From Pecten maximus (lineage: Eukaryota), in the NCBI RefSeq assembly GCF_902652985.1, contig NC_047023.1:20336001-20400000 (forward strand): a stretch of DNA of 64,000 nucleotides, in the 5' to 3' direction. The notes beneath the pieces were generated by a model. That model saw nothing but the letters and a program-made list of their open reading frames with translations, was not told the DNA's origin and made no database searches. How positions within the stretch are numbered: the stretch's first letter is position 1; the number at the start of each line of letters is the position of its first letter. Both the position numbers and the translations under genes were made by a program. This document shows positions 1 through 32,720 of this stretch, in pieces.

Positions 1-1667
1 GAGTTGGATGTGATATCAAAGGTGAAGCTTTATCTATTGAATGTTTACTGAGAGTTCTTTTTGATATAGAGTTAGAACCGTCCACTAGAGGATTTACAGG
101 ATCGTGTTAATTCGGGCTATTTAAGTAGTGATGATCTTGCATCCATTTTGATTGTAAATGAGAATATATACAACATTATGAGATAATTTTGAATATATAA
201 AAAATCGGACATTACTCTTGGGCAGTAGGAATTATGCATGTTTTACCTTTTTTTCTCAGAATCTTAATTCACACGAGGTCTATGTAGATCTTACAGAAAA
301 GCAGTGCCATTCACTTCCTCTAAAGCCATGATAATCTCACATATTATTTCTGACCCAGAACTCAAAAATAAGCTAAGCCGATTGTGATATTTTCACACGT
401 GGGTAGGTCCTAATACCAGCATTGATTAGGCCTATAGTAAGCTTATAGTATCGGTCAGATGCGGTCGACTTGATTGATGTTAATCTTGTCAATTTCATGG
501 ACAAATGAAACGGATTAACTTTTGCTGTTTCATTGAGTCAATTCCAGTAGAAATTTAAATATTTAAATAATTATGTAATTAGGAGAAAGAGAGATAAGAT
601 ACAAAAAGATACATTTTTGATATATTGAGTCAAAATCATACGATATTCATGTAAGGTTTCTGGTAGCTGAGTGCAAAGCTTTTGTCATTCACTTCCTGTT
701 GAGCAGGTCAGCGCTTGTAATCTGTCATACTCTTGGGTTGAAGGGTAATCTTGAAATCTAAAGCTAAGACAAATGAGAATTTGGCGAAAGAAATAGTGTT
801 CACTAAAGTTTGGGGTTTACTCAGTGCGAAGCAAGATTTGTTTCCTAATAATATCTACTGTATCTACAGCGTTTCTGGCAACTCTCCACATCTTTGTCAT
901 GGTGACGCTATCATCAGATCAGGTCAGATATGTTACAATGATATTTTGTTACCGTGCCATAATTTTCTCATGTTCTCATTGATTCATACTACAAGAATCT
1001 AGAAGATGTAACAGTCATGCTGTGCAGTCATGCTTACAGTTGTCATGATTTAAAAATGATTTCTGTTTTTTTTTTCTGTCTATATTCTTCTCTAAAGTAA
1101 TGTGCCATGTCCACATATCATGTATTGAGCTAAATATAGATGTTGTTTCTCATGTTCAGTTGTTTTGATATAAACTGTACGATCGATACTTTTTCCTTTT
1201 GTCTTCAATGTTGATATACCATCTGTCCCCTCGTCTTTCTTTATGTCGTATATCTAATTTGCTAGTATAGTCTTTTTTCTTTTAACATATGTTATTTTTG
1301 TGTCTTTTTTTTTTTATCTCGATTGTGCTGTCAAATGGTTTCCGTGCAAATCTATATCTCGTGTTCGTATTTTGCCTCCTTTTTTTTTTATCGATTTTGA
1401 AATAGTATTCCGGTTTCGTAATCATATCGGTATTTTTTATTTCATTTTTATTTTTCTTATTTTTTTGCGACGTTGGTACAATCAATAAGTTAGGACACAT
1501 CTTTAACCGTGTATACATTAAATAGCATCTTGTTTCTTATGTGGCATGTACTGTTGCCTTAATAAGCCAATACACACCAGTACCTGCCCTTGAAATCAAC
1601 ATCTTCCCAAAACATTTCTAGATTAAAACAAATCACTATATCATTATTGAAATTTGTTTAACATTGC

Positions 1668-1673
1668 TTTATT
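1668..1673 (-). terminator. Probable polyadenylation signal of copy A
   Basis: AATAAA on the minus strand about 250 nt after the stop codon at 1922. Confidence 0.5.
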
Positions 1674-1921
1674 AATAAGTAAAAAGGGTAAGGAGTATAT
1701 ATCTAACAAACAGTATATAAGTAGAGTCCGGAAACAAGCAACATCAGTGACGTCATGTTTGAACTAATTTAGAAGGCACAGTGCACGTATTGTCCAACAC
1801 AGGATCGATAACTCCATGTTTTCAATACAGGTTCGATAACTCCAGGTAATCAACACACATATTGTCCAATATGGGATAGGTAAAATCCTACTTCACATGG
1901 GATGGTTCTTCACAAAACACG

Positions 1922-4900
1922 TCAAAATTTGGTTGGAGTTTTAATGATGACCTACAAAAAAGAAAAAAGATAATAATAACTAGCCATTGTTTTCATTTTT
2001 TATACCTTTAGAATAGGTTAAATTAAGAGATCATGCATGTTTCATTACTGAAAGTTATGTTGTAATATACTATGGAATTTTGTTATCGTCTATAATTTAA
2101 TACTAAATCATTAAAATGTTGTTTATTTGTTAACGGAAGATAGGTAAAGAGGTAGTAAAGTCTTACCGTTTTGAGTTCTGAATACTCGTGTAAACCATAC
2201 TCGCCCCTGAAAAGGGAGAAAAAAATCATTCAATTAATTTAATAAATAATATTTCTATTTTGATGCATCATAAATGCGATACATCAATTTGTTACAATAT
2301 ACTGTTCTTTCAAAACAAATGCATATGAGTCAGAATGCAGAGACAAAAAAGTAATCGTAAATATGAATTAACTTACAGTTCTCGTCCAATACCAGACATC
2401 TTGAATCCTCCGAATGGACACTGGGCACCAAACACATTGAAGGAATTCACCCTGTAGAAAACAAGAAATCTCCAAATAATGTTATTGGTATTTTTGTGCA
2501 TACGCGAAGAAGTGCGTAGATATTTCGATACGAGGGAACCGTTGGGATCATGACGAGGACAACAACCCCTAGAAGAGGGACGCTAGGGCCGGACACAAAA
2601 CCAGGTACTTCACCTTTGCCTAATTCATGCGAGATTTAAAACAATAATCTAAAGAGCAGGCCATACACAAAACCAATGGTATTGTCTCTATGTGAAAGGT
2701 AAAATTACATTTACACAAATATTAGCTAAGGAACAAGAATCAAGATAAAGGGAAGTAAACTATAGCTGTGTATCATGTTAGATCGTCTAACAATTACATA
2801 CAGTACTTACAATACTGGTATGTAAGGAAGGATTTGGAATTTGGACGCGATAATACAATCGTGAATACGTAAACAGAAATTTGGCATTAGTCGAAGACAG
2901 TAACCAGATAGAAATCAAAGTTGATGGTCCAGCCATTCTGACACAGAAGAATTTGTGCATGCGCTTGCTTACTTAGTTATACCGTTATATCTTCAGCAAG
3001 AGTTTTACAACTGTTACCATATTTGACCCATAACCAATTAAGGCAGCTTTGTTTTAATGTCCGAAGCTGAAAATAATTTATTGTTTATTGGTGACGTACC
3101 AGATTGTTCCGGCTCTGACATGGTTGCTGTAGGTCATGACCTTGTCAAGGTCCTTGGTGCAGATACCGGCAGCCAATCCGTAATTTGTTCTATTTGCCCG
3201 CTGTACGACATCATCCATAGTTCTGAACTTGGTGACTTGCATTACGGGACCACAAATCTGTAACAAGCACACCAAAATGGTATAATGACGCTTCCACAGG
3301 TCAATTTACCTAACAGTCAATTAAATGCATCACTGACCAATCGATTATGGATATGTTATGAATTCGACAGTTTCCACAGACAGGTATTTATTAATATGAT
3401 CTCTCATTTGAAAAAAAAAAATATTAAGTTGCAAACTATGGTTTGTCGGACTTGACTGGTGAATGTACCTCCTCTCTGCCGATGCGCATTTCTTCCGTGA
3501 CACCAGAGAACACTGTCGGCTGGACGAAGTATCCCACGGTACCTTGACGCTTGCCACCACATTCTAGTTTGGCTCCCTGCTGCACTCCGCTTTCTATCAG
3601 GGCGATGACTTTGTCGAATTGCTCCTGGTCAATCTGTGATTAACATAGTTCTCATTATCTTTAGATGATTGCGTTTACATTTGTTTTTGCTGTATTTAAA
3701 CTAAGATCATATTTTAAAAATCGACATCTAAACGATGAGATCAGACAGTAGACTATATCAAAAGGTTTTTTTTTTTATGGAAAAGCAGATATATATTTAT
3801 ATTTAGAGTACGAAGCAAAAGTAAGATAGTTATTATAATTGCAGATTTGGCAATGCATAATGTATATATGTATATATGCAATATGTATCGTTTGAATAAA
3901 TATGAATTTATATATATGAATATATATTATTTGTACCTGGGGTCCACATATGGTCCTAACATCGAAAGGATCCCCGACCACCCGTGATTTGGCCTTCTCT
4001 ACCAGTTTCCTGATGAAGACATCATAGATCTCCTCGTGGACGTAAGTCCTGGATGCGGCACAGCAGTACTGTCCCATGTTGAGGAAGAGTCCATTTTGGC
4101 ATGTTTCCACTGCTCTGTCCACTAGCAAATAGAAGCGATATTACAATACATTACAGTAAGAAGGTTAATAGGAAGGGGTATCGCCGTGAACGCTAAATAC
4201 GAAGTAATACTTTCAAGGAGGAAATGGGTTTGTCTTACAATCACGCAGCGCCATCACCAAATAAAAACAAAATGACAAAAAAGTTTCAAGGATGAGATAT
4301 TACAATTGGTGAAATCCTTTCAAGGAAGGTAAATGAAGGAATACTGTAGTCATCGACAGCAATAGAAAAACAGCAGTTACATATGCATATTGATACTCTT
4401 CAGAAGGAACTTTACTCAATAGTATCTACAATATTGTAATGTATAACGGTAACATATATTTTTCAAGACGAGGTTGTGAAAGCTCTATTACTCAAACAAA
4501 CCATAACTACATTGTCTGAAGGTTTATTAACATTCTTCTGGAGAAAAGATATATTGCTCACCATCGGCGTCAGCAAATATGACATTGGGACTTTTCCCTC
4601 CAAGTTCCAGAGTAACCCTCTTGAGATTGGTACGTGCAGCGGCCTGCATCACAATCTGTCCTACCTATGATTGGAAAACAAGAATATACAAATTTGATAT
4701 CAACAGTATTACTGATATATGTAAAGATTCAAAATTATGTTTTATCCATGAACCACGTACCTCGGTAGATCCTGTAAAAGCGATCCTGTCGATGTCGTAG
4801 TGTTCCGAAATAGCGGCGCCTGCTGTTGGTCCATAGCCTGGAATCACGTTCACTACACCAGGGGGAAATCCAGCCTTAATAAATTAGTTTAGAAATCACA

Positions 4901-7900
4901 CAGAGTAAACAAAACAACAAATCAATAACCTATGTGTTAAACACACTTTTGTTACGTGTCAACGTTTGATGCAAAATCAGTGAAAGAAACGCCTTAAAGA
5001 GTCACCATTTTATGAATTTCCTGCTTCTTTAATTAAAATCAGAAAGATTGAATGAAGTATCTTTTACAGTGATTCGTTGAAAGCCTACCTCCTTGATGAG
5101 CGAGGCTGTGTAAAGAGCGGTGAGTGGGGTCTGCTCGGCCGGTTTAAGGACAACCACGTTACCGCAGGCTAGAGCAGGACCAAGCTTCCAGGCCATCATG
5201 AGGAGAGGGAAATTCCACTGGAGTTAAAGAAGACATTTATATAGGTAATGTACAATATTTGATAGTATCATCATCATGTGACAGTTTTGTTTTATTTAAT
5301 TGTTACTGGTATTTTCGTACTAAATCAATTAATCAAAATTGCCGGGTCCTATTTGATTATAACAATATTTTTGTAGATTTATTTGTGTAGCTATACAATA
5401 CAGCATATTTTACAAAACGATTCAGAAAAAGGGAAATATAATGCCACTAGTTTCTTGGTAAATAAAAGCTTGGCCATCTTGATTTGTATACTTATGCTCT
5501 AACAATGTATTTGTTTACGAGAGAGATATAGTTCATCAGAAAGGTGTGAAGTAACTCGTTTACATAGAAGGGTGGCAAGTTTCCCTCACGTAAAGGTGGA
5601 TTACGTAAGGTGAAATGTGTATATGATACATATTCCTGTAGTGTAAAATTAAAGTTGACAATAACTTACATGAAGAATCTGACCGCAAACTCCCACGGGT
5701 TCATGCTTGGTGTAGCAGAAATACTCGCCGTCTACAAAAGAGCGTTATCAAATACCCACAATATTATATTAAAACAAGAAGATATTTCATAATTAAAAAA
5801 AAAAAAGGGTTTTTATCAACATAAGATCTAACAAATCTAAATAATCAATACCTGTATATCAATGTTATATACGTGATAATGATAACAGGAATATAATTAT
5901 GTGTTAAGCGCACATCATTATCATAATAACTTTAGGGAGAAGAATTAGTGTAATAAACACAGAAATGGTCTTATAAAGGGATCACCGCAAAATGCTACTT
6001 TACCCGTGAAAATGCTTTTGTAAAGGAATTATCACAATATTGCAACTTAAGCCAATGACAATGGTCTTGTTGAGGAATAATTACACTTGGTACTTTAACC
6101 ACGAGGATGGTAAGGAATGATCACACGTGATACTTTACCCATGGGAATAGTCTTGCCACAGATCTTGTCAGTCCAGCCAGCGTAGTACCTGATACACTTC
6201 ATCACAAGGACCATGTCAGTGTTGTACGAGTCAGTGAAAGGTTTGCCACAATCCAGAGTCTCAAGGCTCTACAATGATGAACGATGGAGAACAATGGAGA
6301 GCAATGGAGAACAATAGAGAACAATAGAGAACAATGGAGAACAATATTCATCATGACTAATCTTTCTTGATTTGTTGCATTTTGTGAATTATCATGAGCT
6401 TTCTCGGTATTTCTGAAACTACATAATATAGACTTTTAAATAATAAGGTCATTTTATATTGGCAAAAAATGAAATCGATACGGAACGACCCAAGATAAAA
6501 CAATTAATCAAGGATATATGAATATGCATCCGCTGAAACCAAGTGCTCTTTAACGAAAGCATTCCATCCGAACCAATTCGTTCATTTCTTCCCATAATCA
6601 ACTCACTGCCAAGTAGAGCCTGTCCCGTTCTATAAGATCAGCCAGTCTGTTTAGTAGGCGTCCTCGGTCACTGGCATCCATATTGCGCCATACAGATCCG
6701 GTCTCTATCGCCTTTTTCGCCGCAGCAACAGCCCTGTCAACATCGGCCTGTGGTGATATAAAAAAACAAGAAATCCATCCAACTATTAATTAACCCAAAA
6801 GCCAGGATTTGGTATCTCACCGATCAAACGTATGGAAATTTTCTGATATTGAAACTAATTTGCTGTACTCTGATTTACTTACAAATCGCATATTAAGTTG
6901 TTTAGGAGACAAACAATCGTGTTTATACTGCTTGTTTCTGTTTAGATAAGAAATCTGGTACGTTCATGTATTAACGTAAAATGTTTGCAGCATGACGCTT
7001 TGATATAAAACACGGATACATTACTGAGTTATCTCCCTTGCCTGTAAGCTCTTTCCGGTTTCAACAAGAAAAAGAAATCAATTCGGCATCGGAACAAATT
7101 CGCCAAATTAAGGATAAGAAACTGTTTGCTACCAGAAAATAAGATTTTGTATTTTATTAAGGTTTCCTAAAGACAAAAGAGCGTATGCTAGACTTACAGG
7201 TTTACGATAAACAAGCAATCGTATATACATAACGGTTGCCAAGACTGAACAACGCTTTATCTAATTAGCTACCGACACTGACCTTGTCACCTTCTTGTAC
7301 GTCAACGGTCTTCTTTCCAGTGGCCGGGTTGAGGACGTGAAATGTCTTTCCGCTGGCAGCGTTTACCCATTCATTGTTGATAAACAGCTACAAAAATAGA
7401 AAAAATATATATCATATATCGAATATCTTTTTATTTTTCTGTAGAATTAGAAAACTAGCATATATTTGTCGTTATTAGGACTTTCTAGTATAGTATTATG
7501 GTAATTAGGACTATCTAGTATAGTATTGTAGTAATTAGCTCTGTCCAGTATATTATAGTCGTGTTTAGGATTGTCCAGGACACTTCTGTCGTAATTAGGG
7601 CTGTCTAGTGTATTATTGTAGTAACTAGCACTGTCCAGTATATCATTGCAGTAATTAGAACTGCTCAGTATATTTTTGGATTAATTGCATTGTAGGACTG
7701 TCTAGTAAGGTGGTCCACAGGATAACCGTCTTCTGTTGCATTGAAGACTTGCAAATCTAACTCAAATATGATTCCATGTTCTTAAAATAAGAGCCGAGGT
7801 GGTTACCATGGAAACGCTAGGCATATCACCAACGAACACCGAACGCCTCAAACTTTATAATATACAAGGAATTATAATACTTAAGAAATCACAAAACTAA

Positions 7901-7998
7901 TATACCGTGAAAGAAATTTTCAAACTTTATCACCATGCTATACATACATGTTTAAATCTGATCTCGGGGTTTCTGATTGGTGTAGCCATTGTTGTCAT
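1922..7998 (-). CDS. ALDH1A-type aldehyde dehydrogenase copy A; probable lens Omega-crystallin (ALDH1A9-like), 14 coding exons, 495 aa
   Basis: Exons (minus): 7948-7998 [17 protein letters not shown]; 7283-7387; 6607-6747; 6139-6268; 5670-5731 (..GQILH); 5089-5217 (WNFPLLM..KPAEQTP); 4761-4874 (..FTGSTE); 4562-4664 (TLELGGKSP); 3937-4121 ([11 protein letters not shown]); 3469-3633; 3100-3257 (ICGPV); 2377-2451 ([13 protein letters not shown]); 2167-2206; 1922-1951 (VIIKTPTKF*). All introns GT-AG, phases consistent, no internal stops; internal exon sizes 105/141/130/62/129/114/103/185/165/158/75 match vertebrate ALDH1A genes. No mitochondrial leader. The ALDH call is secure; the crystallin identity is inference. 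Confidence 0.95.
6271..6345. repeat. 10-bp tandem repeat (ACAATGGAGA) abutting the copy A coding-exon-4 acceptor
   Basis: About 7 units running directly into the acceptor AG at 6270-6269. Confidence 0.85.
7455..7706. repeat. Degenerate ~30-bp minisatellite (GTAATTAGGACTGTCTAGTATAGTATTGTA-like)
   Basis: About 8 diverged units in the intron between coding exons 1 and 2 of copy A. Confidence 0.75.
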
Positions 7999-8574: not shown

Positions 8575-8812
8575 TTTTTTATATGTCTGGTATCGTTTTT
8601 TATATGTCTGGTATCGTTTTTTATATGTCTGGTATCGCTTTTTATATGTCTGGTATCGTTTTTTATATGTCTGGTATCGCTTTTTATATGTCTGGTATCG
8701 TTTTTTATATGTCTGGTATCGCTTTTTATATGTCTGGTATCGTTTGTTATACGTCTGGTATCGTTTTTTATATGTCTAGTATCGTTTGTTATACGTCTGG
8801 TATCTTTTGTTA
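8575..8812. repeat. 21-bp minisatellite (TTTTTATATGTCTGGTATCGT), about 11 copies
   Basis: Directly visible; produces the spurious FYMSGIV-repeat ORF 8529-8831. Confidence 0.95.
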
Positions 8813-9328
8813 TCGTAATATTATGTTATAAAATATTATTTTCTGCTTGTTCGTGTTTTTGTTACATATATTTGCTAGAAGTTGGATATGTTTAACATTG
8901 AATTAAATTATTCTTTTTTTTAAATCTTATATCAAAAACATGTGAATAGCGAAGTTTAACCCCGAAGAATAATATGACGTCACGAATATCAAACGCAAAA
9001 CAGCAATAAGAACGGCATGACTTTCGATTTACTCCATCGCAAGGTCTAAAGCTGATCCCGTTCGTTTTAGGTAGATCGTGAATAGTCAATACAATATATA
9101 TATATAACATACATAACTTGTGGTGTTACTAAGCATGCAATAAAAACGCCTTTCAAATAGTCAAGAAGCTAACCAAGTGATTTCTGTCAGGCTTGTAGAA
9201 TGGGACATGATCTACTCTCACATCCAAATCTTTATTAAAAAAATATAAGTCATAACAACGTATTACTAAAAATTACCACAGGGACAATTAAATTGAATTG
9301 AAATAGTCAAAATATTATCCAAGAAGGT

Positions 9329-11697
9329 AAAATAAACAGAACGTGACTATACCTGTGACCTTGAAATAAACAGAACTTGACAATACCTGTGACGTTATAA
9401 TAAACAGAACGTGGCTATACCTGTGACAATTAAATAAACAAAACATGACTATACCTGTAACAATTAAATAAACAAAACATTACTATATACCTGTGACGAT
9501 GAAAAAAAAGAACGCGACTTTACCTGTGACGATGAAATCAACAGAACGTGACTACCTGTGACGTCATAATAAATAGAACGTGACTATACCGGTGACGATG
9601 AAATAAACAGAACATGACTAAACCTGTGCCGATGAAATAAATAGACCGTGACTATTACTGTGACGTCATAATGAATTGAATGTGACTATACATGTGACGA
9701 TAAAATAAAACAAAAAGCGTGACTATACCTGTGACGTTAAAATAAACAGAACGCGAAAATACCTGTGAGGTTCTAATAAACAGAGCGTGACTATACCTAT
9801 GACTTCATAATAAACAGAACATAACTGTACCTCTGACGATGAAAAAAGAACGTATCTATACATGTGACGATTAAATGAATGAAACGTGACTATACCTGTG
9901 ACGATAAAATAAACAGAACGCGCCTATACCTGTGATGATATAACAAACAGTCCGTGACTATAGATTTGACGATAGAATTATCAGAACATGACTATTCTTA
10001 TGAAGATAGAATAAACAGAACGTGACTATTCTGATGAAGAGAGACTTAACAGAATGTGACTATACCTGTGACGATAAAATAAACAGAACGTGACAATACC
10101 TGTGATGATATAACAAACAGTCCGTGACTATAGATTATGACGATAGAATAAACAGAACGTGACTATTCTGATGAAGAGAGACTTAACAGAATGTGACTAT
10201 ACCTGTGACGATAAAATAAACAGAACGTGACAATACCTGTGACGATAAAATCAACAGAACGTGACTATACCTACGACGATAAAATAAACAGAACGCGCCT
10301 ATACCTGTGATGATATAACAAACAGTCCGTGACTATAGATTTGACGATAGAATTATCAGAACATGACTATTCTTATGAAGATAGAATAAACAGAACGTGA
10401 CTATTCTGATGAAGAGAGACTTAACAGAATGTGACTATACATGTGACGATAAAATTAACAGAACGTGACTATACCTGTGACGATAAAATAAACAGAACGT
10501 GCCTATACCTGTGATGATATAACAAACAGCCCTTGACTATAGCTGTGACGACAAAACAAACCGAACGTGACTATAGATTTAACGATATAATGATCAGATC
10601 ATGACTATTCCTATGAAGATAGAATAAACAGAACGTGACTATACCATAAACGATAAAATAAACAGAACGTGACTATACCTGTGACGATAAAATTAACAGA
10701 ACATGACTATACCAGTGACGTTGAAATAAACAGAACGTGACTTTATCTGTGACGATGAAATAAACAGACCGTGACTATACCTGTGACGATTAAATTAACA
10801 GAACGTGACTATTCCTATGAAGATAGAATAAACAGAACGTGATTATGCATGTGATAATTAAATAAACAGAACGTGACAATACCTGTGATGATAAGAAAAA
10901 TATAACGTGACTATACCTGTGACGATAAAATAAACAGTCCGTGACTATAGCTGTGACGATAAAACAAATCGAACGTGACTATAGATGTGACGATAGAATC
11001 ATCAGAACATGACTATTCTTATGAAGATAGACTTAGCAGAATGTGACTATACCTGTGACGATTAAATAAACAGAACGTGAAATACCTGTGACGATAAAAT
11101 AAACAGAACGTGACTATACATGTGACGATAAAATGAATAAGAATGTGACTATATCTGTGATGATAAAATTAACAGAACGTGACTATACCTGTGACGATCA
11201 AATGAATAAAACGTGACTATACCTGTGACGATAAAATAACATAACGTGACTATACCTGTGACGATAAAATAAACATAACGTGACTATGCCTGTGACGATT
11301 TAATAAATGGAACGTGAAATACCTATGACGATTAAATAAACAGAACGTGACTATACATGTGACGATGAAATAAACAGAACGTGACTATACCTGTGACGAT
11401 AAAATAAACAGTCCGTGACTATAGCTGTGACGATAAAACAAATCGAACGTGACTATAGATGTGACGATAGAATCATCAGAACATGACTATTCTGATGAAG
11501 AGAGACTTAGCAGAATGTGACTATACCTGTGACGATTAAATAAACAGAACGTGAAATACCTGTGACGATTAAATAAACAGAACGTGAAATACCTGTGACG
11601 ATAAAATAAACAGAACGTGACTATACCTGTGATGATAAAATAAATATTACGTGACTATTCCTATGACGATAAAATAAACAAAACGTGAATATACCTG
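9329..11697. repeat. 34-bp satellite (GACGATAAAATAAACAGAACGTGACTATACCTGT), about 70 copies, in intron 1 of copy A
   Basis: Directly visible with recurring variant series; the upstream end coincides with the exon-1 donor. Confidence 0.95.
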
Positions 11698-11727
11698 TAA
11701 GTCTGTGTACTTCTGCTGCGGCTGTGG
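11695..11727 (-). other. Putative non-coding first exon of ALDH copy A
   Basis: Begins about 30 nt downstream of TATAAAAG (11756-11749) and ends in TTACAG|GTATAT (GT at 11694-11693). A matching acceptor tttgtttttgcag| opens the ATG-containing exon at 8057. The TSS is estimated from TATA spacing only. Confidence 0.65.
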
Positions 11728-11748
11728 TTTCTCTGGCTGACGACGGCA

Positions 11749-11830
11749 CTTTTATAGGAGACAGCAAGACATACTGATTAAAACCTGAGTACGTCCACTT
11801 AGCTTTGCGCACTCAAGCTGACGTCATCAA
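11749..11830 (-). promoter_or_regulatory. Copy A promoter: TATA box and perfect CRE adjoining/overlapping a Pax6-like site
   Basis: TATAAAAG at 11749-11756 (minus); TGACGTCA at 11819-11826; minus-strand GCTTGAGTGC (11818-11809) fits the 3' half of the Pax6 paired-domain consensus GCWTSANTKM, and a full site would overlap the CRE. Confidence 0.7.
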
Positions 11831-18000: not shown

Positions 18001-19975
18001 GAACTACAATGTAGTACTGAGTGGTATAGAACTACAACGTAGTACTGAGTGGTATAGAACTACAATGTAGTACTGAATGGTATATAACTACAATGTAGTA
18101 CTGAGTGTTACAGAACTACAATGTAGTACTGAGTGTTACAGAACTACAATGCAATACTGAGTGGTATAGAACTACAACGTAGTACTGAGTGGTATTGAAC
18201 TACAATGTAGTACTGAGTGTTACAGAACTATAATGTAGTACTGAGTGTTATAAAACTACAACGTAGTACTGAGTGTTACAGAACTACAATGTAGTACTGA
18301 GTGTTATAAAACTACAACGTAGTACTGAGTGTTATAAAACTACAACGTAGTACTGAGTGTTATACAACTACAACTGTAGTACTGAGTGTTACAGAACTAC
18401 AATGTAGTACTGAGTGTTATAGAACTACAACTGTAGTACTGAGTGTTATCAAAACTACAATGTAGTACTGAGTGTTATAAACTACAAGTAGTACTGAGTG
18501 TACAGAACTACAATGTAGTACTGAGTGGTTAGAACTACAATGTAGTTACTGAGTGGTACTAGAACTACAATGTAGTACTGAGTGGTATAGAACTACAATG
18601 TAGTACTGAGTGGTTCAGAACTTACAATGTATTACTGAGTGGTATAGAACTACAACTGTAGTACTGAGTGGTATAGAACTACAATGTAGTACTGAGTGGT
18701 ATAGAACTACAATGTATTACTGAATGGTATAGAACTACAACGTAGTACTGAGTGTTACAGAACTACAATGTAGTACTGAGTGTTACAGAACTACAATGTA
18801 GTACTGAGTGGTATATAACTACAATGTAGTACTGAGTGTTACAGAACTACAATGTAGTACTGAGTGGTATAGAACTACAATGTAGTACTGAGTGTTATAG
18901 AACTACAATGTAGTACTGAGTGTTATAGAACTACAACTGTAGTACTGAGTGTTATAGAACTACAATGTAGTACTGAGTGGTATATGAACTACAATGTAGT
19001 ACTGAGTGGTATAGAACTACAATGTAGTACTGAGTGGTATAGAACTACAATGTAGTACTGAGTGGTATAGAACTACAATGTAGTACTGAGTGGTATAGAA
19101 CTACAATGTAGTACTGAGTGGTATTGAACTACAACGTAGTACTGAGTGTTATAGAACTACAACGTAGTACTGAGTGGTATAGAACTACAATGTAGTACTG
19201 AGTGGTATAGAACTACAATGTAGTACTGAGTGGTATAGAACTACAATGTAGTACTGAGTGGTATAGAACTACAATGTAGTACTGAGTGGTATAGAACTAC
19301 AATGTAGTACTGAGTGGTATAGAACTACAATGTAGTACTGAGTGGTATAGAACTACAACGTAGTACTGAGTGGTATAGAACTACAATGTAGTACTGAATG
19401 GTATATAACTACAATGTAGTACTGAGTGTTACAGAACTACAATGTAGTACTGAGTGTTACAGAACTACAATGCAATACTGAGTGGTATAGAACTACAACG
19501 TAGTACTGAGTGGTATTGAACTACAATGTAGTACTGAGTGTTACAGAACTATAATGTAGTACTGAGTGTTATAAAACTACAACGTAGTACTGAGTGTTAC
19601 AGAACTACAATGTAGTACTGAGTGTTATAAAACTACAACGTAGTACTGAGTGTTATAAAACTACAACGTAGTACTGAGTGTTATAAAACTACAACGTAGT
19701 ACTGAGTGTTACAGAACTACAATGTAGTACTGAGTGTTATAAAACTACAACGTAGTACTGAGTGTTATAAAACTACAACGTAGTACTGAGTGTTATAAAA
19801 CTACAACGTAGTACTGAGTGTTACAGAACTACAATGTAGTACTGAGTGGTATAGAACTACAATGTAGTACTAAGTGGTACAGAACTACAATGTAGTACTG
19901 AGTGTATAGAACTACAATGTAGTACTGAGTGGTATAGAACTACAATGTAGTACTGAGTGGTATAGAACTACAAAG
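15095..19975. repeat. 28-bp satellite (GTAGTACTGAGTGGTATAGAACTACAAT), about 174 copies
   Basis: Homogeneous 4.9-kb array between the two ALDH paralogues; each unit contains AGTACT and the near-palindrome ACTACA-A-TGTAGT. Confidence 0.98.
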
Positions 19976-20168
19976 TACATGCAGTACTAACTAGAATATG
20001 TATGGTATAACCTCTATATTGTTTGATATGATTTAGTTCTGGCAGATAAACAAGTAACTCAATGTTTTTGCAATATTGTAATGTATTACATGGAAGTCAC
20101 GGTGTAATAAAAAGTTTGTTATAAACTGTTAAATCCTTTCCTTGGAATAACAATGTCAGTCTGCTAAA

Positions 20169-23100
20169 TCACTTCGTCAACGGGTTCATTAATACCTGAA
20201 ACATAAAAAAATAAACATTGGATAATTTTACATAGTTATTTCAATAGAAATGCCAATGATGTAAAAATGGTACTGCCTCAAAACATATATATGGCGGAGC
20301 TGTAATAGGGGTAAACACATGGCGGGGTTAGTAGTAGAGGGTAGAGGAGTAAACACATGGCGGGGTTAGTAGTAGTGGGAAGAGGAGTAAACACATGGCG
20401 GGGTTAGTAGTAGGGGGTAGAGGAGTAAACACATGGCGGGGTTAGTAGTAGTGGGTAGAGGAGTAAACACATGGCGGGGTTAGTAGTAGGGGTAGAGGAG
20501 TAAACACATGGCGGGGTTAGTAGTAGGGTTAGAGGAATAAACACATGGCGGGGCTAGTAGTACGGGGTAGAGGAGTAAACACATGGCGGGGTTAGTAGTA
20601 GGGGGTAGAGAAGTAAACACATGGCGGGGTTAGTAGTAGGGGGTAGAGGAGTAAACACATGGCGGGGTTAGTAGTAGGGGGTAGAGAAGTAAACACATGG
20701 CGGGGTTAGTAGTAGGGGGTAGAGAAGTAAACACATGGCGGGGTTAGTAGTAGGGGGAAGAGGAGTAAACACATGGCGGGGCTAGTAGTACGGGGTAGAG
20801 GAGTAAACACATGGCGGGGTTAGTAGTAGGGGGTAGAGAAGTAAACACATGGCGGGGTTAGAAGTAGGGAGTAGAGAAGTAAACACATGGCGGGGTTAGT
20901 AGTAGGGGGTAGAGAAGTAAACACATGGCGGGGTTAGTAGTAGGGGGTAGAGGAGTAAACACATGGCGGGGTTAGTAGTAGGAGGTAGAGGAGTAAACAC
21001 ATGGCGGGGTTAGTAGTAGGGGGTAGAGGAGTAAACACATGGCGGGGTTAGTAGTTTCTCCATTTCTCCATTTATGGTCAGTAAAATGCCAAAATCGCTG
21101 ACATGACGTAATAATCACTGTCGGATAAGGAGTTCACTCTACAAATTCCGTTAGAACCGGTAGTTATCTTAATTATTGATCTATAAAAAATGACTAAGCA
21201 AAATAACTTTCAGATTCCTTCTTTATCTATAAACATGTATTTTAGAAATGTTTTAAGAATCATGGACCTTAACCTTTGAAACAGACCTTTTTTTCTACTG
21301 TACAAAGACGGAGTATGCACTGTCCAACATCACTTTTTAATACAGATAGTTTAGGTCAAAAATATGTTGCATCTACTGTATGATTACTCCATGTTACGCA
21401 ATGGTGTGTTTTTTTACATTGACGGATCAGAACTTCCTGACCCAGATGACGCAATGGTAGAACTAACCAATCAATTACATATTTTAAAAACAAATTTTAA
21501 CAGATGCTATCCGACAACAGAAAACTCGTGTGGAATGGTCAGTTCAAAATTACCAGATGCCCGAAAATATTCTCTACTCACTTCACAATAATTGTGCGGT
21601 AAAATAGTAAAATAATATACAGCTGTAGCTAGTCTCGTTGTGCCACCTAATGCAAAACTTTACATTTCATTATTTACCTTCATATAGTTTGATAGTATTT
21701 TACATAAGATAGTATACAGATACATTTCGTTTTCTATTCAAATTATATCTTTTCAAAATTACGTTTACATATAAAACACTTTAGGACAGACATGTAAACT
21801 GGTAACATACTTACCGTTTTGATTTCAGAATATTGTGCCAAACCATACTCTCCTCTGTAATACGAAGGTGTTGATATGTGTTCATGCATCAGCGAGGTAT
21901 GTACAAAGTATCAATATTTTCATTATAATACACCATATCATATCAACAGGAAAACGGAACTAGAAATTGCATGATGGTTTATTAATTACATGTAGTTATT
22001 TTTCGTTTGCAAGCCAAAAAACGCGCAATGATCTTTAATAATATTGTGAAAATTATTTTCAAATGTTTTAAAGATGGAATGGGAAAATTACGTGGTTAAC
22101 AAAGGGAATGTATTAACAGTAGGACATTCACTTACAGTTCTCGGCCGATTCCGGACATCTTGAATCCTCCAAACGGACTTTGCGGGGTGACAATATGGTA
22201 TGCGTTTACCCTAAAACGTAATCAAAAGAAGCGTTCGTAATACGAAATTAAAAGCAACTCGGCTCGTTATACTAAATGATGAACATACCCGCTCATTATA
22301 TATAGTAATAAACATACCCGCTCATTATATATAGTAATAAACATCCCTGCTCGTTATACAAAATAATAAACATCCCTGCTCATAATACAAAATAATAAAC
22401 ATCCCTGCTCATAATACAAAATAATAAGTATCCCCGCTCATTATACAAAATAATTAACATCACGTTTCAATATACAAAATATTTTGTCTCGAAAATCGAT
22501 AAATCTGATTAGGAGAACTTTCGTTATAACTACAGTTAGAATATTTGTCCAACACAGATCTCCCAGTACGACGATATGGTTGCTAATATGCATTGTGATA
22601 TCAACACGAGCCATAAATTCAGGCATTGAATAGTTTTTACTCTCATTGACCTGCATTCATAGATCAATCACTTCAACTTTCTATAACATGACAAACCATC
22701 ACTTTCATATCTTTATTATTTAGTTTTTGTATGAATTCATGCAGTCGACCTTGAACTCATTTTTATATACTAACTTAAAAGAAAGGCATATCCTAATACC
22801 ACACATTTTATTAATAGGTCAACCAGTTCGCCTTAAGTAGTAGTAAACGCTTGTCCAGATTCTCCACCACATTATTCGAACACTTGAAACAATGTGTGTT
22901 AGTCATCGAATACTTTTTTTTATCTTACAACGCTAACGGACCATTTATCAATTTGGAAGAAATGTTCTACGTCAAGCCATTGATTCCCGACAATAAAACC
23001 AAACATTTACCATACTGTTCCGGCTTTGACCTTGTTAGAAAAGGTCACTGCTTTTCCAAGGTCGTTGGTATAAATAGCAGCAGCCAGTCCATAAGGTGTG

Positions 23101-24662
23101 TTGTTTGCTCTTTCGATAACCTCTTCCATTGTCTTAAATTTGATAATTTGCTGAACTGGTCCAAAAATCTGATAAAAAAGAACACAAACATTCTATTGAT
23201 AGTTTCGGTACGTTGTATCTATATTAAGCTAGATTGATGCAAATACTTTGTAATACATTTATGTCGATATTTAACTTCATTGTTACGATTAGATTAGTAG
23301 TTAAAGTCGAAAGTTATCTTCATCGTCACGAATGTTTTAATGATTTGTACACATATATACATATAGGTAAATTATCACAAATATTTAACTATTTTGTATA
23401 TATACCTAACGAAATTATCAGGGATATATTAGTAGCAAATAATTATTTATCATTTTTTCGCTATTGATCATTAATACATGAATCAATACTATTTTAATGG
23501 TTGGTATCGTTTTTCTGCATAATGTGACAATTCTTACGTATGGCTATTAAAGATAATTTTTGTATATTAAACCATGGTATTCGGACTGACAAACTTCAAA
23601 GTGATTTCGGAAGTGACAGTATCCAGACTGTAATGGCCACTAAACTGTTACCTCCTCCTTGCCGATAGTCATGTCCTCTGTGACACCGGTAAACACGGTC
23701 GGCTGGATGAAGTAACCTTTACCCTCTACGGCCTTCCCGCCACACTCCAGCTTGGCACCATCCTTCACTCCTTTCTCGATCATCGATAGAATCTTCTTAA
23801 ATTGTTCTTCGTCAATCTGAAAATGATGATTGCTTTTCGTTTATTGAAATATAACTTTCATAGAAATACATATTGTATGAATAAAAAAGCTCCACCTTAA
23901 GGTTGATTTTTTCAATAAAGATATAACGTGTCATTTCCATTTATTAAAGTGATAAGATTATGAAAATATTTTATCAATAATTAGCCAGGAAGTATATATA
24001 TTACTTGTGGTCCAGATTCATTCTTGGTATCAAACGGGTCTCCTACACTCCTATTTTTGGCTCTATTGATAAGTTTCGCAGTGAATTCCTCGTAGACTTC
24101 CTCTTGGACATACGTCCTTGACCCCGCCGTGCAACACTGACCCATATTGTAGAACAATGCTTGATGTGACATCTCAGCCGCGACGTCCACTGGGATAAAA
24201 GTAAATACGTAGGTGAAGCAGATTCTACTATTCGCAAATGTTCTTAACATTGCTATACCCAGGTATCTCCAGATGGGGTTATTCGTATGACAATGCTGTA
24301 TATCAGTGAAATGTAATACTAATATCTACAAAACATTAGTTATCGTAAGCAGTCTGATTTTTTATCGTCAAAGCGAAAAAAATCCTTTTCATAAAATTTC
24401 ATATGAAATGATTACTCATTGGATATATCAACATAAAGAGTGAGGCGAACACATAATTCTTGGACAGAGCTAAAATTTAAATGAGTAAAGGAAAGAAAGG
24501 GGGAGGGGGTCAGTAGAGTTGTATGTGACTTACAATTAGCATCAGCGAAGACGACGTTTGGACTTTTCCCTCCCAATTCCAGAGTGACACGCTTAAGGTT
24601 AGATTTGGCAGCAGCTTCCATTATAATTTGTCCAACCTGAAAACCCAATAACATATTGAAAT

Positions 24663-24698
<36 letters not shown>

Positions 24699-27600
24699 AT
24701 TTGATTTAAAAATATCAAAATGTGAAAGCGATTAATATGCACCTCAGTTGAACCTGTAAAAGCGACTTTGTTGATATCAGGATGGCTAGAGATGGCAGCA
24801 CCGGCGGTTGGACCATATCCGGGCACTATATTCACTACTCCGGCAGGGAAGCCAGCCTAGGTGTACAAAGACAAAACGAAAGTTAAACAATGATAAACAC
24901 ATACCGTTAGCGTTATTTGTATTATGCCAGTCTAGACCCCATCTACAGCGATACTTGTTATATCCATATCTCTTTGAATAAAGCACCTATATACAAGGAT
25001 GTTTGTGGGGTTTGTTATGTTCCTTCTTCTTTGAATGGACACCAGGTACAGGATGTTAATGGGTTTTGATATACCTCGACCTTTTTTAATACAGACCCCA
25101 TGTACAAGGATGTTAGTCGGATTGAACTGTCCGTAACTCTTTGAATAAAGACATATGTTAAGGGCTGTGAGTGGGGTGTGTTATGCCCCTACCTCTTTGA
25201 ATAGAGACCCCATGTAAAGGGCTGTTAGTCGGGTTTGAACTGTCCCTAACTCTTTCAATAAAGACCTATGTAAAGGGCTGTAAGTGGAATTTGTATGCCC
25301 CTACCTCTTTGAATAGAGACCCCATATACAGGGCTGTTAGTGGGGTTTGTTCGGCGGGCTTCAAGACGATGCAGTTTCCACAGGCTAAGGCAGGCGCTAT
25401 CTTCCAGGACATCATTGCCAATGGGAAATTCCACTAGAAAAAAAACATTCGGACGGTATACAATACAATTAATTTACCATCATGAAATCTTTTTACTCTG
25501 GTGGCATTCATATGTAACCGAAAAATACAAGCATGCTACGACTCAGTTTCTTTAAACGTAGGCCGAATACTTCAATTTGCCAAATCTTGTAATATTAATT
25601 TAGGCTTTCATTAATGCAGTCCCAGTTGTTTAAAAGATGATTAGGCTAATTGCAGTTTTAAAATCCTGATGAAATATGGCACTTCTCAGACTCTTCCTAC
25701 CTGCCTATTTTGAAGATTATACACACACATGTTTTGCAATTAAGGAGAAATGAGATTTTCACTAATCAAGAGATTAAGCTAAACCATCTTTTTAACAACT
25801 GGGCACTGGTGATATGTCACATCGTTTGATAAATTTTAAGCAGAATCATGTGTTCGGATTTTATTTTGTTTTGGCTCTGTTCCAATAAATCATCTTTCAT
25901 CAAAAGGTGGATAAGTCTCATAATACATAGTATTGGTTTGTTAGCAGAATGTAATAACTATTTCATCAACAGAAAAAGTGCATTATCAAATTCAGCTTGA
26001 TATTTTTTTAGTACCGGAATAATCTGACCGCAAATTCCCACTGGTTCATGTCTGGTGTAACAGAAGAAGGGACCATCTGTAAAGGAAATGATGTTTAGGC
26101 TAATTGAAGTATTATGTGTCGATACATAACTAGCTCTAACAGTGATACTACAAATAGAAGCATGTATATTTTAAGATTGGAAATGAACACCAGAAAGTGG
26201 CTGTTGTTATTAAACCATATCATGACGTCAACGAATAAGTGACGAGAAATAAATCAGTTCTTTACCATTGAGATAAAAATATATAATAATGTATTAAATA
26301 CGAAAATACGAGAATTACATGATGCAGTATGCATGGCTGTAAAATTAAAAGGTACCTATTTTTTATTGAAAAGTACTTAAAGTTTAATTACTTGAATTGA
26401 CGTTGTGGATTTAGATAAATAAGAACTACTGCCAAATTGCAAAGACAGATTATCATTAACAAGTCTTCAAGAAAATAAAACAATATGATCCTAAGTGAAC
26501 TTGACATCATATACACACGTACCAACTGGGATGGTTTTGCCACAGATCTTGTCCGTCCAACCGGCGTAGTACCGGATGGTGTTAAGGATCATGCTCATAT
26601 CATTTTCATACATATCTCTGAAAGGTTTCCCATTGTCCATTATCTCCAAACTCTGCAATCAGAAAATGTTACATATTACTTTTTTTTCACCGAAAATGTC
26701 CGTCAAATATAACTTTCTTTCGTAAAACACGTAAATAAATTAATTTTAACAACTGTTCAAATTCAAAGAGTTTGTATTTATATGGCTTTCGATTTGCTGT
26801 GAGTCTAAATTTATACCTGCTGCATATAAAGGTATCATGATAAACAATCATGGATTTGTCTCTTAAAATTTAATGGATTAACAATAGTACTAGTTAAGAG
26901 GAATCATATTACGTTAAGGACCTACCGATATGTACAGTCTGTCCCTCTCGATCAGATCGGCCAGTTTGTTCAGTAGGGTCCCTCTGGTGCTGGCGTTCAT
27001 CAGTCTCCATGGCGAGTCATCCTTAAACGCGGCCTTGGCAGCTTCCACAGCCTTGTCTATGTCAGCCTGAGTACAAATGGAAAAGCATTTAGCCGTCAGG
27101 AAGACAGAGTCCTTATTCATCAGAAAAGCAGCTTGCTTTTATTCCGAAAAACAGAAAAGTTATTCTTCACAAAGGGATGTCAAAAAGGTAGAATATGTAG
27201 TCGTCAGAACGGGTAGGCAAAAAGGCAGCATATTTAATCGTCAGAAAAACAGAATGTTTAACCGTCAGAAAGACATGTTTAGTCATTAGAAAGGGTCGTG
27301 AAGAAGGAAGGCAGAATAGTCAGTCAAGGTCGTGAAGAAGGCAGAATGGTCAGTCAAGGTCGTGAAGAAGGCAGAATGGTCAATCAAGGTCGTGAAAAAG
27401 GCAGAATGCTCAGACGTCAGACGTGTCGTGAAAAAGAAAGAAAGCTCTGACGTGACACAGGATTGTAAAAAGGGCACAACGATTAGTTGTCAGAAAGACA
27501 GAATGATAAATCGTTGGAACTGCAGAATGCTTAGTCTTCAAATACATGTAGTCTTCTTCAGAAAGACAAAATGTTTAATAAGCAGAAAAAGGTCGTCAGG

Positions 27601-29827
27601 AAAGCAAATGAAAAGCAGACGGTTAAGTTATCAGAAAGACAAAAAGAGCAGCCATCGGAAAGCCCGTCTGAAAGGCAGCATTTGTAGTCATCAGAAAAGT
27701 TTGTCAAGAAAGCAGAATGATTAATTGTCTGAAAGAAAGGATCGTCCGAAACACATAATGCTGTCATCAGAAAAGGAGCATGCTCAGATGCTAATGTGCA
27801 ATCGTTTATTAGGTGGTGACGTGATCATAGAATGACATTCACAATGATTTTCTTAAAATTGTTATAATGTAGGAAAGTTAAGATGTTTATTAATCATAAT
27901 CTGGGGTAGCATAGCTGTAGATATTTCAAGAAAAAAATGACTATTTCGAAGTCATGATGCGTAAAAGGTCTCAAAATACACAAATTTGTTTTGTATACTT
28001 AAGGTATACTTTGTTAACAGGAGATTGACAACAAGAGCTCTGTTATAAAGCGCATTTCTTTCTATGTTCATCCTACATTAATCGTAATAGTGCGTAATTG
28101 GTCATGACTTTGACCAAGCTGTATATCTACCTTGTCCCCTTCCTGGACCTCGATGATCTTTTCCCCTGTACTGGGGTTGATTGTGGCGAAAGTCTTGCCG
28201 CTAACACTGTCCACGTACTCATTATTAATGAATAACTGTAACAAAAATAATATACCTGATGTAAACATCATCAACAAATACTAGTAAATGTAAAAAAAAG
28301 TAACGTTACTGAATATATGTAACAACAGACGTAATAATCATTAATATACATACCTTCAGTAAATTAAATTAAATTGTTCATGTCCATTGTTATAAAAATT
28401 ATTATTATCTGTTTGTTAAGCACGAATCATGGATATTTTCCAGACACAATAATGTTTTCTGATGACAGTGTGGGACAGCAACTTTTTGTTATGTTTTCAT
28501 TATATTGTCCTTTAATTATTGTTAATTTGAAATGTGCAATAATAATCAGCAGAATACATTTGTCTTCGAGAACCGAAAAATTATAAACTTGTAAGAGGTA
28601 CATTTTTAGCTCTTCACATACTTGACGTAATGTGATGTAATGTGATAAGTAGTATCTAATCTGACCTGGCACATGACACAACGTTATCTTAGACAGTGCG
28701 GGTAACATGTACCTATACCATGTTGATGGTTGTCATTACTTATAAATACTGATTCGTATACCGTGTATTTGAATCAAAACCACTTACAAAACGGCTACTA
28801 ACACTGAACGTTAAGTAAATTTTGTACTTAGGTTCTTTAGTATTGACCCTGTTGTATATTTTGTCCTTTAGTGTTGACCCTGTTGTATATTTTGTCCTTT
28901 AGTGTTGACGCTGTTGTATATTTTGTCCTTTAGTGTTGACCCTGTTGTATATTTTGTCCTTTAGTATTGACCCTGTTGTATATTTTGTCCTTTGGTGTTG
29001 ACCCTGTTGTATAGTTTGTACTTTAGTGTTGACGATGTTGTATGTTTTGTCCTTTGGTGTTGACCCTGTTGTATATTTTGACCTTTAGTGTTGACGCTGT
29101 TACATATTTTGTCCTTTAGTGTTGACCCTGTTCTATATTTTGTCCTTTAGTGTTGACGCTGTTGTTTATTTTGTCCTTAAGTGTTGACCCTGTTCTATAT
29201 TTTGTCCTTTAGTGTTGACGCTGTTGTTTATTTTGTCCTTTTGTGTTCACCCTGTAGTATATTTTGTTCTTGGATGTTATGCTATGATTTATGTTACATG
29301 TACTCTGAAATTTACGCTTTGATTTATTTGTCCTTTATGTTGTTCAAATACATATTGTCAATAGTCACATTTATGACATGTCCAGCATTCAGGTACACGG
29401 ACCACGTTTACTTTTTCTACCATATTAACAGCGGACCATAGTGGTCGCCAGTGTTGGACATACTTGAATCATGTTATATTATGTATAAGAATGATCCACG
29501 CGTGAAGGTGTATGTATAATATGTCATTATCATCACAAAAGTAGTCCTTTCGGATTTATTAAAAAGAAACTAAGATTATATCAAGTCGCGAGTCCATGTC
29601 GGGATAAAAACTTTTGAAACGACTCCCAATTCAACTGGTGTTCGCGTTCGAGTTCTTGACATGTACGTGTGCGTGGTCCGTCTATAGAGAAACTGAACTA
29701 GCATAATAGAAATGCCACTTCAGATAAGATTTATATATATAGAAGCACAAAAGTTATTAAAAATCGTTACCTGTGTGTATTTTACTTCCGGGTTTCTGAT
29801 AGGATCCGGTAATTGGGCTGCCATCAT
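20169..29827 (-). CDS. ALDH1A-type cytosolic aldehyde dehydrogenase copy B (canonical motifs intact), 14 coding exons, 496 aa
   Basis: Exons (minus): 29771-29827 [19 protein letters not shown]; 28131-28235; 26926-27066; 26523-26652; 26015-26076 (GQIIP); 25305-25433 (WNFP); 24743-24856 (FTGSTE); 24534-24636 (TLELGGKSP); 24005-24189 ([11 protein letters not shown]); 23652-23816; 23011-23168 (IFGPV); 22136-22210; 21815-21854; 20169-20195 (VLMNPLTK*, the least certain exon). GT-AG introns at the same positions as copy A. Confidence 0.95.
20308..21056. repeat. 37-38-bp G-rich minisatellite (GTAAACACATGGCGGGGTTAGTAGTAGGGGGTAGAGGA), about 20 copies
   Basis: Directly visible in the last intron of copy B. 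Confidence 0.95.
22283..22455. repeat. 29-bp minisatellite (AAACATCCCTGCTCATAATACAAAATAAT-like), about 6 copies
   Basis: Directly visible in intron 11 of copy B. Confidence 0.85.
24930..25352. repeat. ~56-bp tandem repeat derived from the 3' end of copy B exon 6 plus its donor
   Basis: Exon-end sequence ctacctctttgaatagagaccccatatacagggctgttagtggggtttg recurs about 7 times into intron 6 with increasing divergence. Confidence 0.9.
27075..27780. repeat. Degenerate 24-30-bp low-complexity repeat upstream of the copy B exon-3 acceptor
   Basis: Recurring GTCAGAAAGACAGAATG / GTCGTGAAGAAGGCAGAATGGTCA motifs. Confidence 0.75.
28840..29265. repeat. 31-bp minisatellite (TTGACCCTGTTGTATATTTTGTCCTTTAGTG), about 13 copies
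   Basis: Directly visible in intron 1 of copy B. Confidence 0.93.
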
Positions 29828-30839: not shown

Positions 30840-32720
30840 TTCACATAATGACGTCTCGAATATGGATAAGTTAATGATTATCTATTTCAAATGTTTTGAC
30901 TGTTGGTGCGGTAACCACAGCGTCCGGGAGAATGTTCCAGTGTTCCAGACAATCCGCTCTCTAAACGAATATTTCCTCGGATTCAGTCTGCTTCTCGTTT
31001 TATCATGTCATGGTCTGCTCTCTTCTTCTTCTTTTTTTTAGTATTTTGCGTTAATAATCCCTCTGTGTGTTGATTTATATACTTGGATCATATCTCCCCT
31101 TAGCCTTTTATGTTTCAGTGTATGTATTTTAAAAACTCCTAGTCTACTTTTGTAGCTTAGATCCAACATTCTTGGTATTTATTTGAGCTGCTCTTCTTTG
31201 GACGTTCTCTAATTCATTATAATATTCTGCAAATATGGGTCCAGATGCAAGCCCATATTCTAAATGAGGCCGAGCAAGCACTTTATATAGATGACAGAAA
31301 GTCGTAGTATCCAAGTATGCGTAGGTTCTTCGGATGGTCCCCATTATTCTATTTGCCTTGATGACAATATCATGAATATGATCGCTGAAGTTAAGGTTGC
31401 TATCAGTTGTAATTCCAAGGTCCTTTTTTCCTTGTTACTTCCTGAAGGGAGGTCGCAACTCTTCCTTTGGTGTGTATTGGTATAAATGTAGAGATCTTTT
31501 GTTGGATTTCTTTCCTAGGTGCAAAACTTTACACTTGTCAATGGATTTTTTCTGACCATTTTCGTAGTTGATTTGTCATTCTGAAGATTGTTATTTTTCA
31601 TATAATTACAGATTTTAGTATCATCTGCGAATAAATACGTGGTTGCATCAATATTTTCCGGAATGTCATTGATATAAATTACAAATTTTCGGTCCTAAAA
31701 CACTTCCTTGGGAAATCCCACTTGTAACCTCCATCCATTTGGACAGTTCTCCGTTTACCGATACTCGTTGTTTCCGGCCAGTTATAAAAGTTGGCACCCA
31801 ATGGACGGTTTCCTGCAATAATCCATGATTTTTATTTGCTGATAAGCAGTAGATGTGGAACCGTAACTAACGCGTTCATGAAGTATAGGTATACTGCTTC
31901 GATTTATCCTCCTTTTTTTGAAACATATGTTCATTCTTCAATAACTTTCAGTAACTGCAAAATAGTCGACCTTCCTTTTACGAATCCATGTTTACTTAGG
32001 AGATTACTGTTTTCCAGATGAGCCATTTTTCTTGACCTTACAATCCATTGTTTTACATATAACGCTAGTTAAGCTAACTGGTCTATAATTCTCTGGCATT
32101 TTCTTGTCCCCTTTCTTGTAGATCGCAGTATCCAAACTGTCTTTCCAATTATCAGGAAGTTCTCCTGTCTGCAATGAACACTTAAATATTTCGCACAAAG
32201 GGACTTTTATAATATCCGCTGTTTCCTTCAATACTCCAGGATGGAAATTGTCTCCTCCTGGTGATTTTGTATGATAGAATGTTAAATATTTCAAGTTCCG
32301 AAACTTCAGTAGTACTTTGTGGAATTTCTGTTTTACGGTCTTCGACTACGGTAACACTACCTTTGGGTTCAACCGTGTATACACTTGAGAAATATTCTGC
32401 TAGAGCGTTAGCCTTATCGTGATCAGTTTTAGCAATGTTTGTTTAGTTCCCACATTTCATTTGCAGTTCTGTTTTTTTTTTTAATTTTAGAATTTGCGTA
32501 TCTCCAAAACTGCTTGGGACTGGTCTTTACCTCTTTTACTATATCTTTTTCCAGATTTGTTTAACATTTCCTCACCAATTTTTTAACATTGTTTGCGGCT
32601 TTCAACGTATTTTATTTTCATCCAGTCTCAATGCATCTCTGCCAGCTCCTGTGTTTTTGTTTGATAGCCTGGACGGTGTTCTTATCCAGGGGATTCTGTC
32701 TTTTCTTCGTTGCACATATT
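30840..32720 (-). mobile_element. Decayed, 5'-truncated CR1-like non-LTR retrotransposon (ORF2 reverse transcriptase)
   Basis: Minus-strand fragments KSPGGDNFHPGVLKE, YKKGDKKMPENYRPVSLTSVICK, HGFVKGRST, VTSGISQGSVLGP, YLFADDTKI, LYKVLARPHLEYG, LENVQRRA, RLRGDMIQVYK and LPDAVVTAPTVKTF, broken by frameshifts and stops. Confidence 0.9.

Follow-up and report, generated by a model that had tools for sequence, protein, structure and literature searches.

Scallop Ω-crystallin is puzzling in that it is reportedly inactive although none of its key residues is missing, and the locus described here raises the question of whether a gene copy with an altered cofactor pocket could supply a molecular explanation for an inactive, structural aldehyde dehydrogenase (ALDH). 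The window, which is the whole stretch of 64,000 nucleotides of Pecten maximus DNA that was analysed, contains two tandem ALDH1/2-type genes, copies A and B, both on the minus strand. The initial annotation had proposed that copy A keeps its catalytic residues and has lost NAD-pocket motifs that copy B retains. The gene models are as follows.

1922..7998, minus strand: coding span of copy A, 14 coding exons, 495 aa, no stop (gene model from the window sequence)
7998-7948, 7387-7283, 6747-6607, 6268-6139, 5731-5670, minus strand: copy A exons 1-5 (gene model)
5217-5089, 4874-4761, 4664-4562, 4121-3937, 3633-3469, minus strand: copy A exons 6-10 (gene model)
3257-3100, 2451-2377, 2206-2167, 1951-1922, minus strand: copy A exons 11-14 (gene model)
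20169..29827, minus strand: copy B, 496 aa and identical with P0021, the tandem ALDH1/2-type paralogue in which the motifs are canonical; its last exon starts at 20195

All 13 introns in the gene model of copy A have GT-AG ends, and the translation agrees letter for letter with the Pecten maximus entry XP_033749616.1 (P0001), named 'retinal dehydrogenase 1-like'. The Aldedh domain (PF00171) is full-length (1-461/461, E 8.5e-177) and an AlphaFold model based on 149 sequences gave a pLDDT of 97.4 with a TM score of 0.99 to ALDH2, which together place copy A in class 1/2 of the ALDH superfamily; a first model based on nine sequences (pLDDT 49) was set aside. An ordinary ALDH fold is plausible from this prediction, which owes much to the many normal ALDHs in its deep alignment and is silent on binding. 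The predicted fold (TM 0.98-0.99), 60-64% identity and the catalytic triad are shared with vertebrate ALDH2, ALDH1A1-3 and ALDH1B1. No mitochondrial leader is present in copy A, nor in the Ω-crystallin of Placopecten magellanicus. Copy A residue n corresponds to residue n+4 of mature ALDH2 by gapless alignment to bovine ALDH2.

In runs X6 and X15, contigs of copy A are joined across introns 10 and 11 at their canonical ends and extend into exon 9. None of the runs listed as carrying copy A was recorded as RNA, and it is the spliced joints, found in two studies, that establish that the gene is transcribed and spliced. Exon 12 is common to the paralogues. Two coding differences were seen in the reads over copy A and both are synonymous, a weak sample confined to positions 1600-3890.

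The codons of interest are distributed over the gene as follows, in ALDH2 numbering.

5670..5675, minus strand: codons of I166L and P167H, cofactor side, common to copy A and its Argopecten orthologue P0005
5672-5670, minus strand: codon CAT of H167
5212..5214, minus strand: N169, oxyanion residue, kept
5143..5145, minus strand: K192, adenine-ribose contact, kept
4605..4607, minus strand: E268, general base, kept
4054..4083, minus strand: F296L, C301Y, the catalytic C302 (kept) and G305A
4068-4066, minus strand: codon TAC of Y301
4065-4063, minus strand: codon TGC of C302
4056-4054, minus strand: codon GCA of A305
3469..3471, minus strand: E399, kept
3254-3252, minus strand: codon TGT of F401C, with the same letters in runs X3, X6 and X15; the Argopecten orthologue has Tyr here

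The four substitutions first noticed (P167H, C301Y, AGSR to AASR, F401C) are indeed present in the codons of copy A at these positions. The alignment likewise confirmed the retention of N169, K192, E268, C302 and E399, as the gene model and P0021 did the motifs IIPWN, EEIFGP and GQCCTAGSR in copy B. Three further changes, I166L, F296L and K240R, were found. The catalytic residues N169, E268 and C302 are all present, and K192, E195, G245-G250, Q349, E399 and F465 are also kept. When the near-universal ALDH cofactor residues given in the consulted part of PMC12041015 are taken as a list (I166, K192, E195, 245-250, Q349, E399, F401), copy A equals the outgroup consensus at 10 of 12, the differences being I166L and F401C.

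The reality of the codons was examined in four runs from four studies over the region 1600-3890, which of the four codons covers that of F401C only. No other letter was seen at 3252-3254 in three of the four runs (DNA run X3, X6 and X15, from three studies), X5 having no coverage there, and this rules out an assembly error or a rare allele for F401C. For P167H, C301Y and G305A such an origin is unlikely, as the same residues H167, Y301 and A305 occur in Argopecten irradians P0005, which has Y401 instead of C401; the check in a related species agrees with the annotation at three of the positions. An alternative splice site restoring Pro167 appears unlikely: in the gene model the donor after the His codon is a canonical GT whose position and phase match those in copy B.

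The weight of each substitution was judged against two sets of proteins. The close outgroup comprises 111 ALDH1/2 proteins (120 listed matches, minus 5 of at least 560 aa, plus 4 cluster members, minus 8 of the Ω clade), and the distant set comprises 133 of 150 ALDH cluster representatives, 17 having been dropped for length. P167 is found in 111/111 of the close outgroup and 119/133 of the distant set (A 8, S 1, T 1, H 1, gap 3). Ten distant ALDHs thus carry A, S or T at 167, nine of them with the catalytic Cys, while in the sole protein with H167 (P0385, without a name) all of the triad is gone and residue 401 is Tyr. F401 is found in 111/111 and 129/133 (Y 2, L 1, gap 1), and the three proteins with another residue all lack Cys302 in the alignment, one of them being a partial sequence. 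Within the distant set, therefore, H167 (one protein) and Y401 (two) are confined to proteins that lack the catalytic Cys. None of the 111 close or 133 distant ALDHs has Cys at 401, and no protein of either set has the catalytic Cys without F401.

The high conservation claimed for P167 and F401 is borne out by these counts, and their invariance in the outgroup puts P167H and F401C far outside normal variation. Both residues are also kept in the alignments by ALDH2, ALDH1A2 and ALDH1A1, unlike in copy A. Residue 167 sits beside the cofactor diphosphate, and the literature search found no paper on a Pro167 change. As had been supposed, F401 contacts the cofactor, specifically its nicotinamide half, according to the excerpts consulted of PMC8160307 and PMC12041015. 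By alignment, P167H and F401C (plus I166L) are the only cofactor-side changes at near-invariant sites in copy A.

The other two substitutions were counted as losses of the NAD pocket, and here the initial annotation did not hold. C301 is found in 86/111 of the close outgroup and in just 19/133 of the distant set, a Phe stands at 301 in an active Pseudomonas ALDH (PMC13598318, in part), and F296 and C301 form part of the wall of the ligand tunnel (PMC8908493, in part). Position 301 is a variable residue of the aldehyde site, and C301Y was rejected as an NAD-pocket lesion, though Tyr, which copy A shares with its orthologue, stands at 301 in none of the comparison proteins (0/111, 0/133). G305 occurs in 107/111 of the close outgroup; Ala at this position is found in sheep and human ALDH1A1, in 17/133 distant ALDHs and in 8/8 Ω-clade sequences, so that AASR was rejected as a lesion and is a likeness between copy A and vertebrate ALDH1A1. 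Taken together, the comparisons suggest two credible cofactor-side lesions (P167H, F401C), one substrate-site change (C301Y) and one ordinary replacement (G305A).

The best named relatives of copy A are scallop Ω-crystallins at 82-84% identity, from Placopecten (Q9NJH2), Ylistrum, Mizuhopecten and Pecten itself (P0004). In a tree of 30 sequences, in which no cephalopod Ω-crystallins were placed, copy A falls in an Ω-crystallin (ALDH1A9) clade of eight with a support of 100/100, which bears out its assignment to a lineage of structural ALDHs. The Placopecten Ω-crystallin (AAF73122.1 for Q9NJH2), 83% identical to copy A, shares with it AASR, N292, the C-terminus and the order of the promoter blocks (see below), and differs from it in keeping I166, P167, F296, C301 and F401. 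The six canonical Ω-crystallins, including this lens protein, all keep I166, P167, C301 and F401.

Copy B lies elsewhere in the tree and is only 66% identical to copy A. Its use as the comparator was therefore misplaced; judged by identity, the proper comparator is P0004, a second Pecten protein with canonical motifs that is 83% identical to copy A and 86% to the Placopecten protein, copy A being the extra paralogue. P0004 lies outside the window under an accession adjoining that of copy A, and the Argopecten orthologues of copies A and B also have adjacent accessions on the same contig (XP_069138658.1, XP_069138657.1). A tandem cluster is likely from this adjacency in the two genera, from which the position of P0004 is deduced.

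The orthologue of copy A is Argopecten irradians XP_069138658.1 (P0005, 'retinal dehydrogenase 2-like'), the pair having a support of 100/99. The two share L166, H167, L296, Y301 and A305, and 20 residues are common to only these two among the eight Ω-clade sequences. Both are full-length, with a mutual identity of 78%. The Argopecten protein differs from copy A by C302S, F401Y, F465I, G270S and K272R and has a much longer branch (0.26 vs 0.053), and it is predicted to be catalytically dead. At 217 sites with a conservation of at least 90% among the outgroup proteins it shows 31 departures, vs 10 in copy A, 5-7 in canonical Ω-crystallins and 5 in copy B, where the excess of copy A is small and inside the spread of 0-14 that outgroup proteins reach on a similar count. 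A canonical Ω-crystallin of Argopecten was not among the named matches, and no A-type protein outside Pecten and Argopecten was found among the matches listed, likewise in the search of shorter proteins, with 120 listed.

In an account ascribed to Piatigorsky (2000), the Placopecten Ω-crystallin is said to be inactive and to bind neither NAD nor NADP despite intact key residues. Since canonical Ω-crystallins keep P167, C301 and F401, the changes in copy A postdate the crystallin lineage and cannot explain its reported inactivity generally. If the Placopecten report holds, activity was lost before the substitutions, which would then be traces of relaxed selection acting on a pocket no longer in use. 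We therefore favour, with some confidence, the reading that copy A is a second scallop Ω-crystallin, a likely non-enzymatic structural protein, probably of the lens/cornea, whose unused cofactor pocket is likely eroding under relaxed selection. It is likely that the loss of activity reported for the family came before the pocket changes and was not brought about by them; a further weakening of NAD binding would be the likely effect of P167H and F401C. The further changes of the Argopecten orthologue (C302S, F465I, G270S, K272R) and its 31 departures fit the relaxed-selection reading. The molecular explanation initially offered for an inactive structural ALDH thus stands in part: P167H and F401C are real and on the cofactor side, but canonical Ω-crystallins lack them and they are no general cause.

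From the residues shared by living sequences, the following order of events may be proposed. An ALDH1/2-type gene of the tandem cluster would have become a lens crystallin with its catalytic and cofactor residues all intact, and the crystallin gene would have been duplicated before Pecten and Argopecten split. One copy would then have acquired I166L, P167H, F296L and C301Y, after which F401 may have changed to Cys in Pecten and to Tyr in Argopecten, where the copy would have gone on to lose C302 and to alter F465, G270 and K272.

Another possibility is that copy A descends from an enzyme-crystallin that still had activity or bound NAD, and that P167H and F401C switched this copy off. The invariance of both residues in the outgroup and the hold of F401 on the nicotinamide half would agree with such a switch, as would canonical Ω-crystallins that appear fully equipped for catalysis. 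Nevertheless, the Placopecten protein reportedly is inactive and does not bind NAD with P167 and F401 intact. Moreover, residue 401 differs between the orthologues (C vs Y), so that of the two changes only H167 is common to both; nine ALDHs with the catalytic Cys tolerate A, S or T at 167, and the search for a described Pro167 change returned nothing. We regard this course as unlikely.

Copy A keeps the whole triad and may still be active. It could be an enzyme or a ligand binder whose aldehyde funnel has been reshaped by L296 and Y301, with catalysis or an NAD-independent esterase activity at lower cofactor affinity. Retention of K192, E195, Q349 and E399 beside the triad is consistent with this, as are the aromatic residue at 301 of an active ALDH (PMC13598318, in part), the tunnel-lining F296 and C301 (PMC8908493, in part) and the proposal, from docking, of squid Ω-crystallin as a pigment binder (PMC6397165, in part). 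The orthologue has C302S and F465I, which argues that catalysis is not conserved in the clade, and Cys401, or a catalytic Cys without F401, has no counterpart in the comparison sets; a working site of this kind appears improbable. That copy A is a redundant duplicate without a separate function, on its way to becoming a pseudogene, is very unlikely: the long Argopecten branch with its 31 departures and the restriction to two species among the matches listed would suit such drift, but the open frame with 13/13 canonical introns, the spliced transcripts in two studies, the full length in two genera at 78% identity, the promoter-like blocks kept upstream and the synonymous variants (2/2, a weak sample) argue against it.

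The region upstream of copy A shows the following features.

11695..11826, minus strand: promoter and short non-coding leader exon predicted for copy A, with a CRE-like 8-mer, two blocks and TATA; the transcription start is predicted
11756-11749, minus strand: TATA box of the predicted promoter

At 11826-11749, a CRE-like 8-mer, two blocks resembling Pax6 sites and the TATA box follow one another just as their counterparts do in the Placopecten Ω-crystallin promoter, which is described as Pax6-regulated in the part of PMC5737492 consulted; the comparison was made by eye with its supplementary Figures S9B and S10. Two short patterns of this promoter have one match each in the window, none of them at copy B, and 0 in 100 shuffles; as the patterns were built after seeing both sequences, the shuffles are no independent test and the agreement is one of resemblance only. 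The CRE 8-mer by itself occurs eight times in the window. Copy A thus appears to keep a promoter resembling the published lens promoter.

Two further members of the fold provide a comparison. Cephalopod Ω-crystallin and human ALDH16A1 are ALDH-fold proteins described as enzymatically inactive (PMC6397165, where this is stated for the cephalopod protein, and PMC10650815, both in part). ALDH16A1 lacks the catalytic triad that copy A keeps (PMC10650815, in part); loss of the catalytic Cys of this type is not found in copy A, and within the pair only the Argopecten orthologue has lost C302.

Scallop Ω-crystallin is a classic case of an enzyme taken over as a lens protein, and the excerpts consulted treat it as one gene. 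The literature searched, mostly other than subscription journals, yielded no paper on a second one, and supplements of scallop genome or eye-transcriptome studies may list the paralogue; this second scallop copy, with its likely eroding cofactor pocket, has apparently not been described before. As the copy is kept in two genera and appears dead by sequence in one, it provides a short series from nature by which the steps that lead from enzyme to crystallin can be put in order. Two entries that databases list under 'retinal dehydrogenase-like' names may be flagged as probable non-enzymes. The inactivity of the canonical Ω-crystallin remains unexplained by the changes of copy A.

More tentatively, copy A may after duplication have turned, in Pecten and Argopecten, into the crystallin reserved for the lens, the sister copy having kept a residual or non-ocular role, an escape from gene sharing that we consider possible though doubtful. 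If true, copy B, canonical Ω-crystallin, Pecten copy A and its Argopecten counterpart would form a living gradient from enzyme to pseudoenzyme, one that arrives at the H167 and Y401 also found in distant dead ALDHs, perhaps because exclusion of NAD(H) is favoured. Ω-crystallin is called 'tetrameric' in the title of a 2006 paper by Horwitz.

Over exon 12 of copy A, the Ω-crystallin paralogue under study (positions 2377-2452), contigs that run on into exon 13 or introns of the other paralogue match A with 0 letters differing, and such contigs are likewise identical to A at the start of its exon 14 (1926-1952). DNA depth over both stretches is about three times that of the flanks. These results suggest gene conversion between A and a copy of the type of P0004, the second Pecten Ω-crystallin protein.

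A separate observation at 1906-1949 concerns one spliced contig of the sequencing run X6, which carries an A-type exon 13 but differs from A in six letters at the end and has another 3′ UTR. The contig may come from a recombinant allele or from an additional gene copy, or it may have been joined wrongly in assembly.

P0385 and P0274, ALDH-like proteins without a name that are 495-498 aa long and 41-48% identical to A, lack N169, E268 and C302 (ALDH2 numbering) and both have Y401, with H167 additionally present in P0385. They are likely to be independent ALDH pseudoenzymes. The Argopecten irradians orthologue of A (P0005, XP_069138658.1) carries C302S despite its annotation as 'retinal dehydrogenase 2-like', and no canonical Argopecten Ω-crystallin was found among the named matches of the protein search. 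P0124 (OWF48408.1) reaches 718 aa including a repeat-like N-terminal extension, which is likely a gene-call artefact, and P0122 (XP_033729322.1), 99% identical to P0004 and encoded on a 17 kb contig, is likely an uncollapsed haplotype.

Long imperfect tandem repeats lie within A and within and downstream of the tandem ALDH1/2-type copy B:

9400-11650 and 8580-8810, first intron of A
28840-29270, first intron of B
20300-21050, last intron of B
19500-19990, downstream of B

Upstream of B, 31000-32500 looks by eye, from motif likeness, like the decayed remnant of a LINE-type reverse transcriptase, and neither of two ORFs in this region matched a Pfam family. The CRE-like 8-mer TGACGTCA occurs 8 times in the window against 0.5 expected from shuffles, with half of the sites in 8975-11826, two of these four within the intron repeat.
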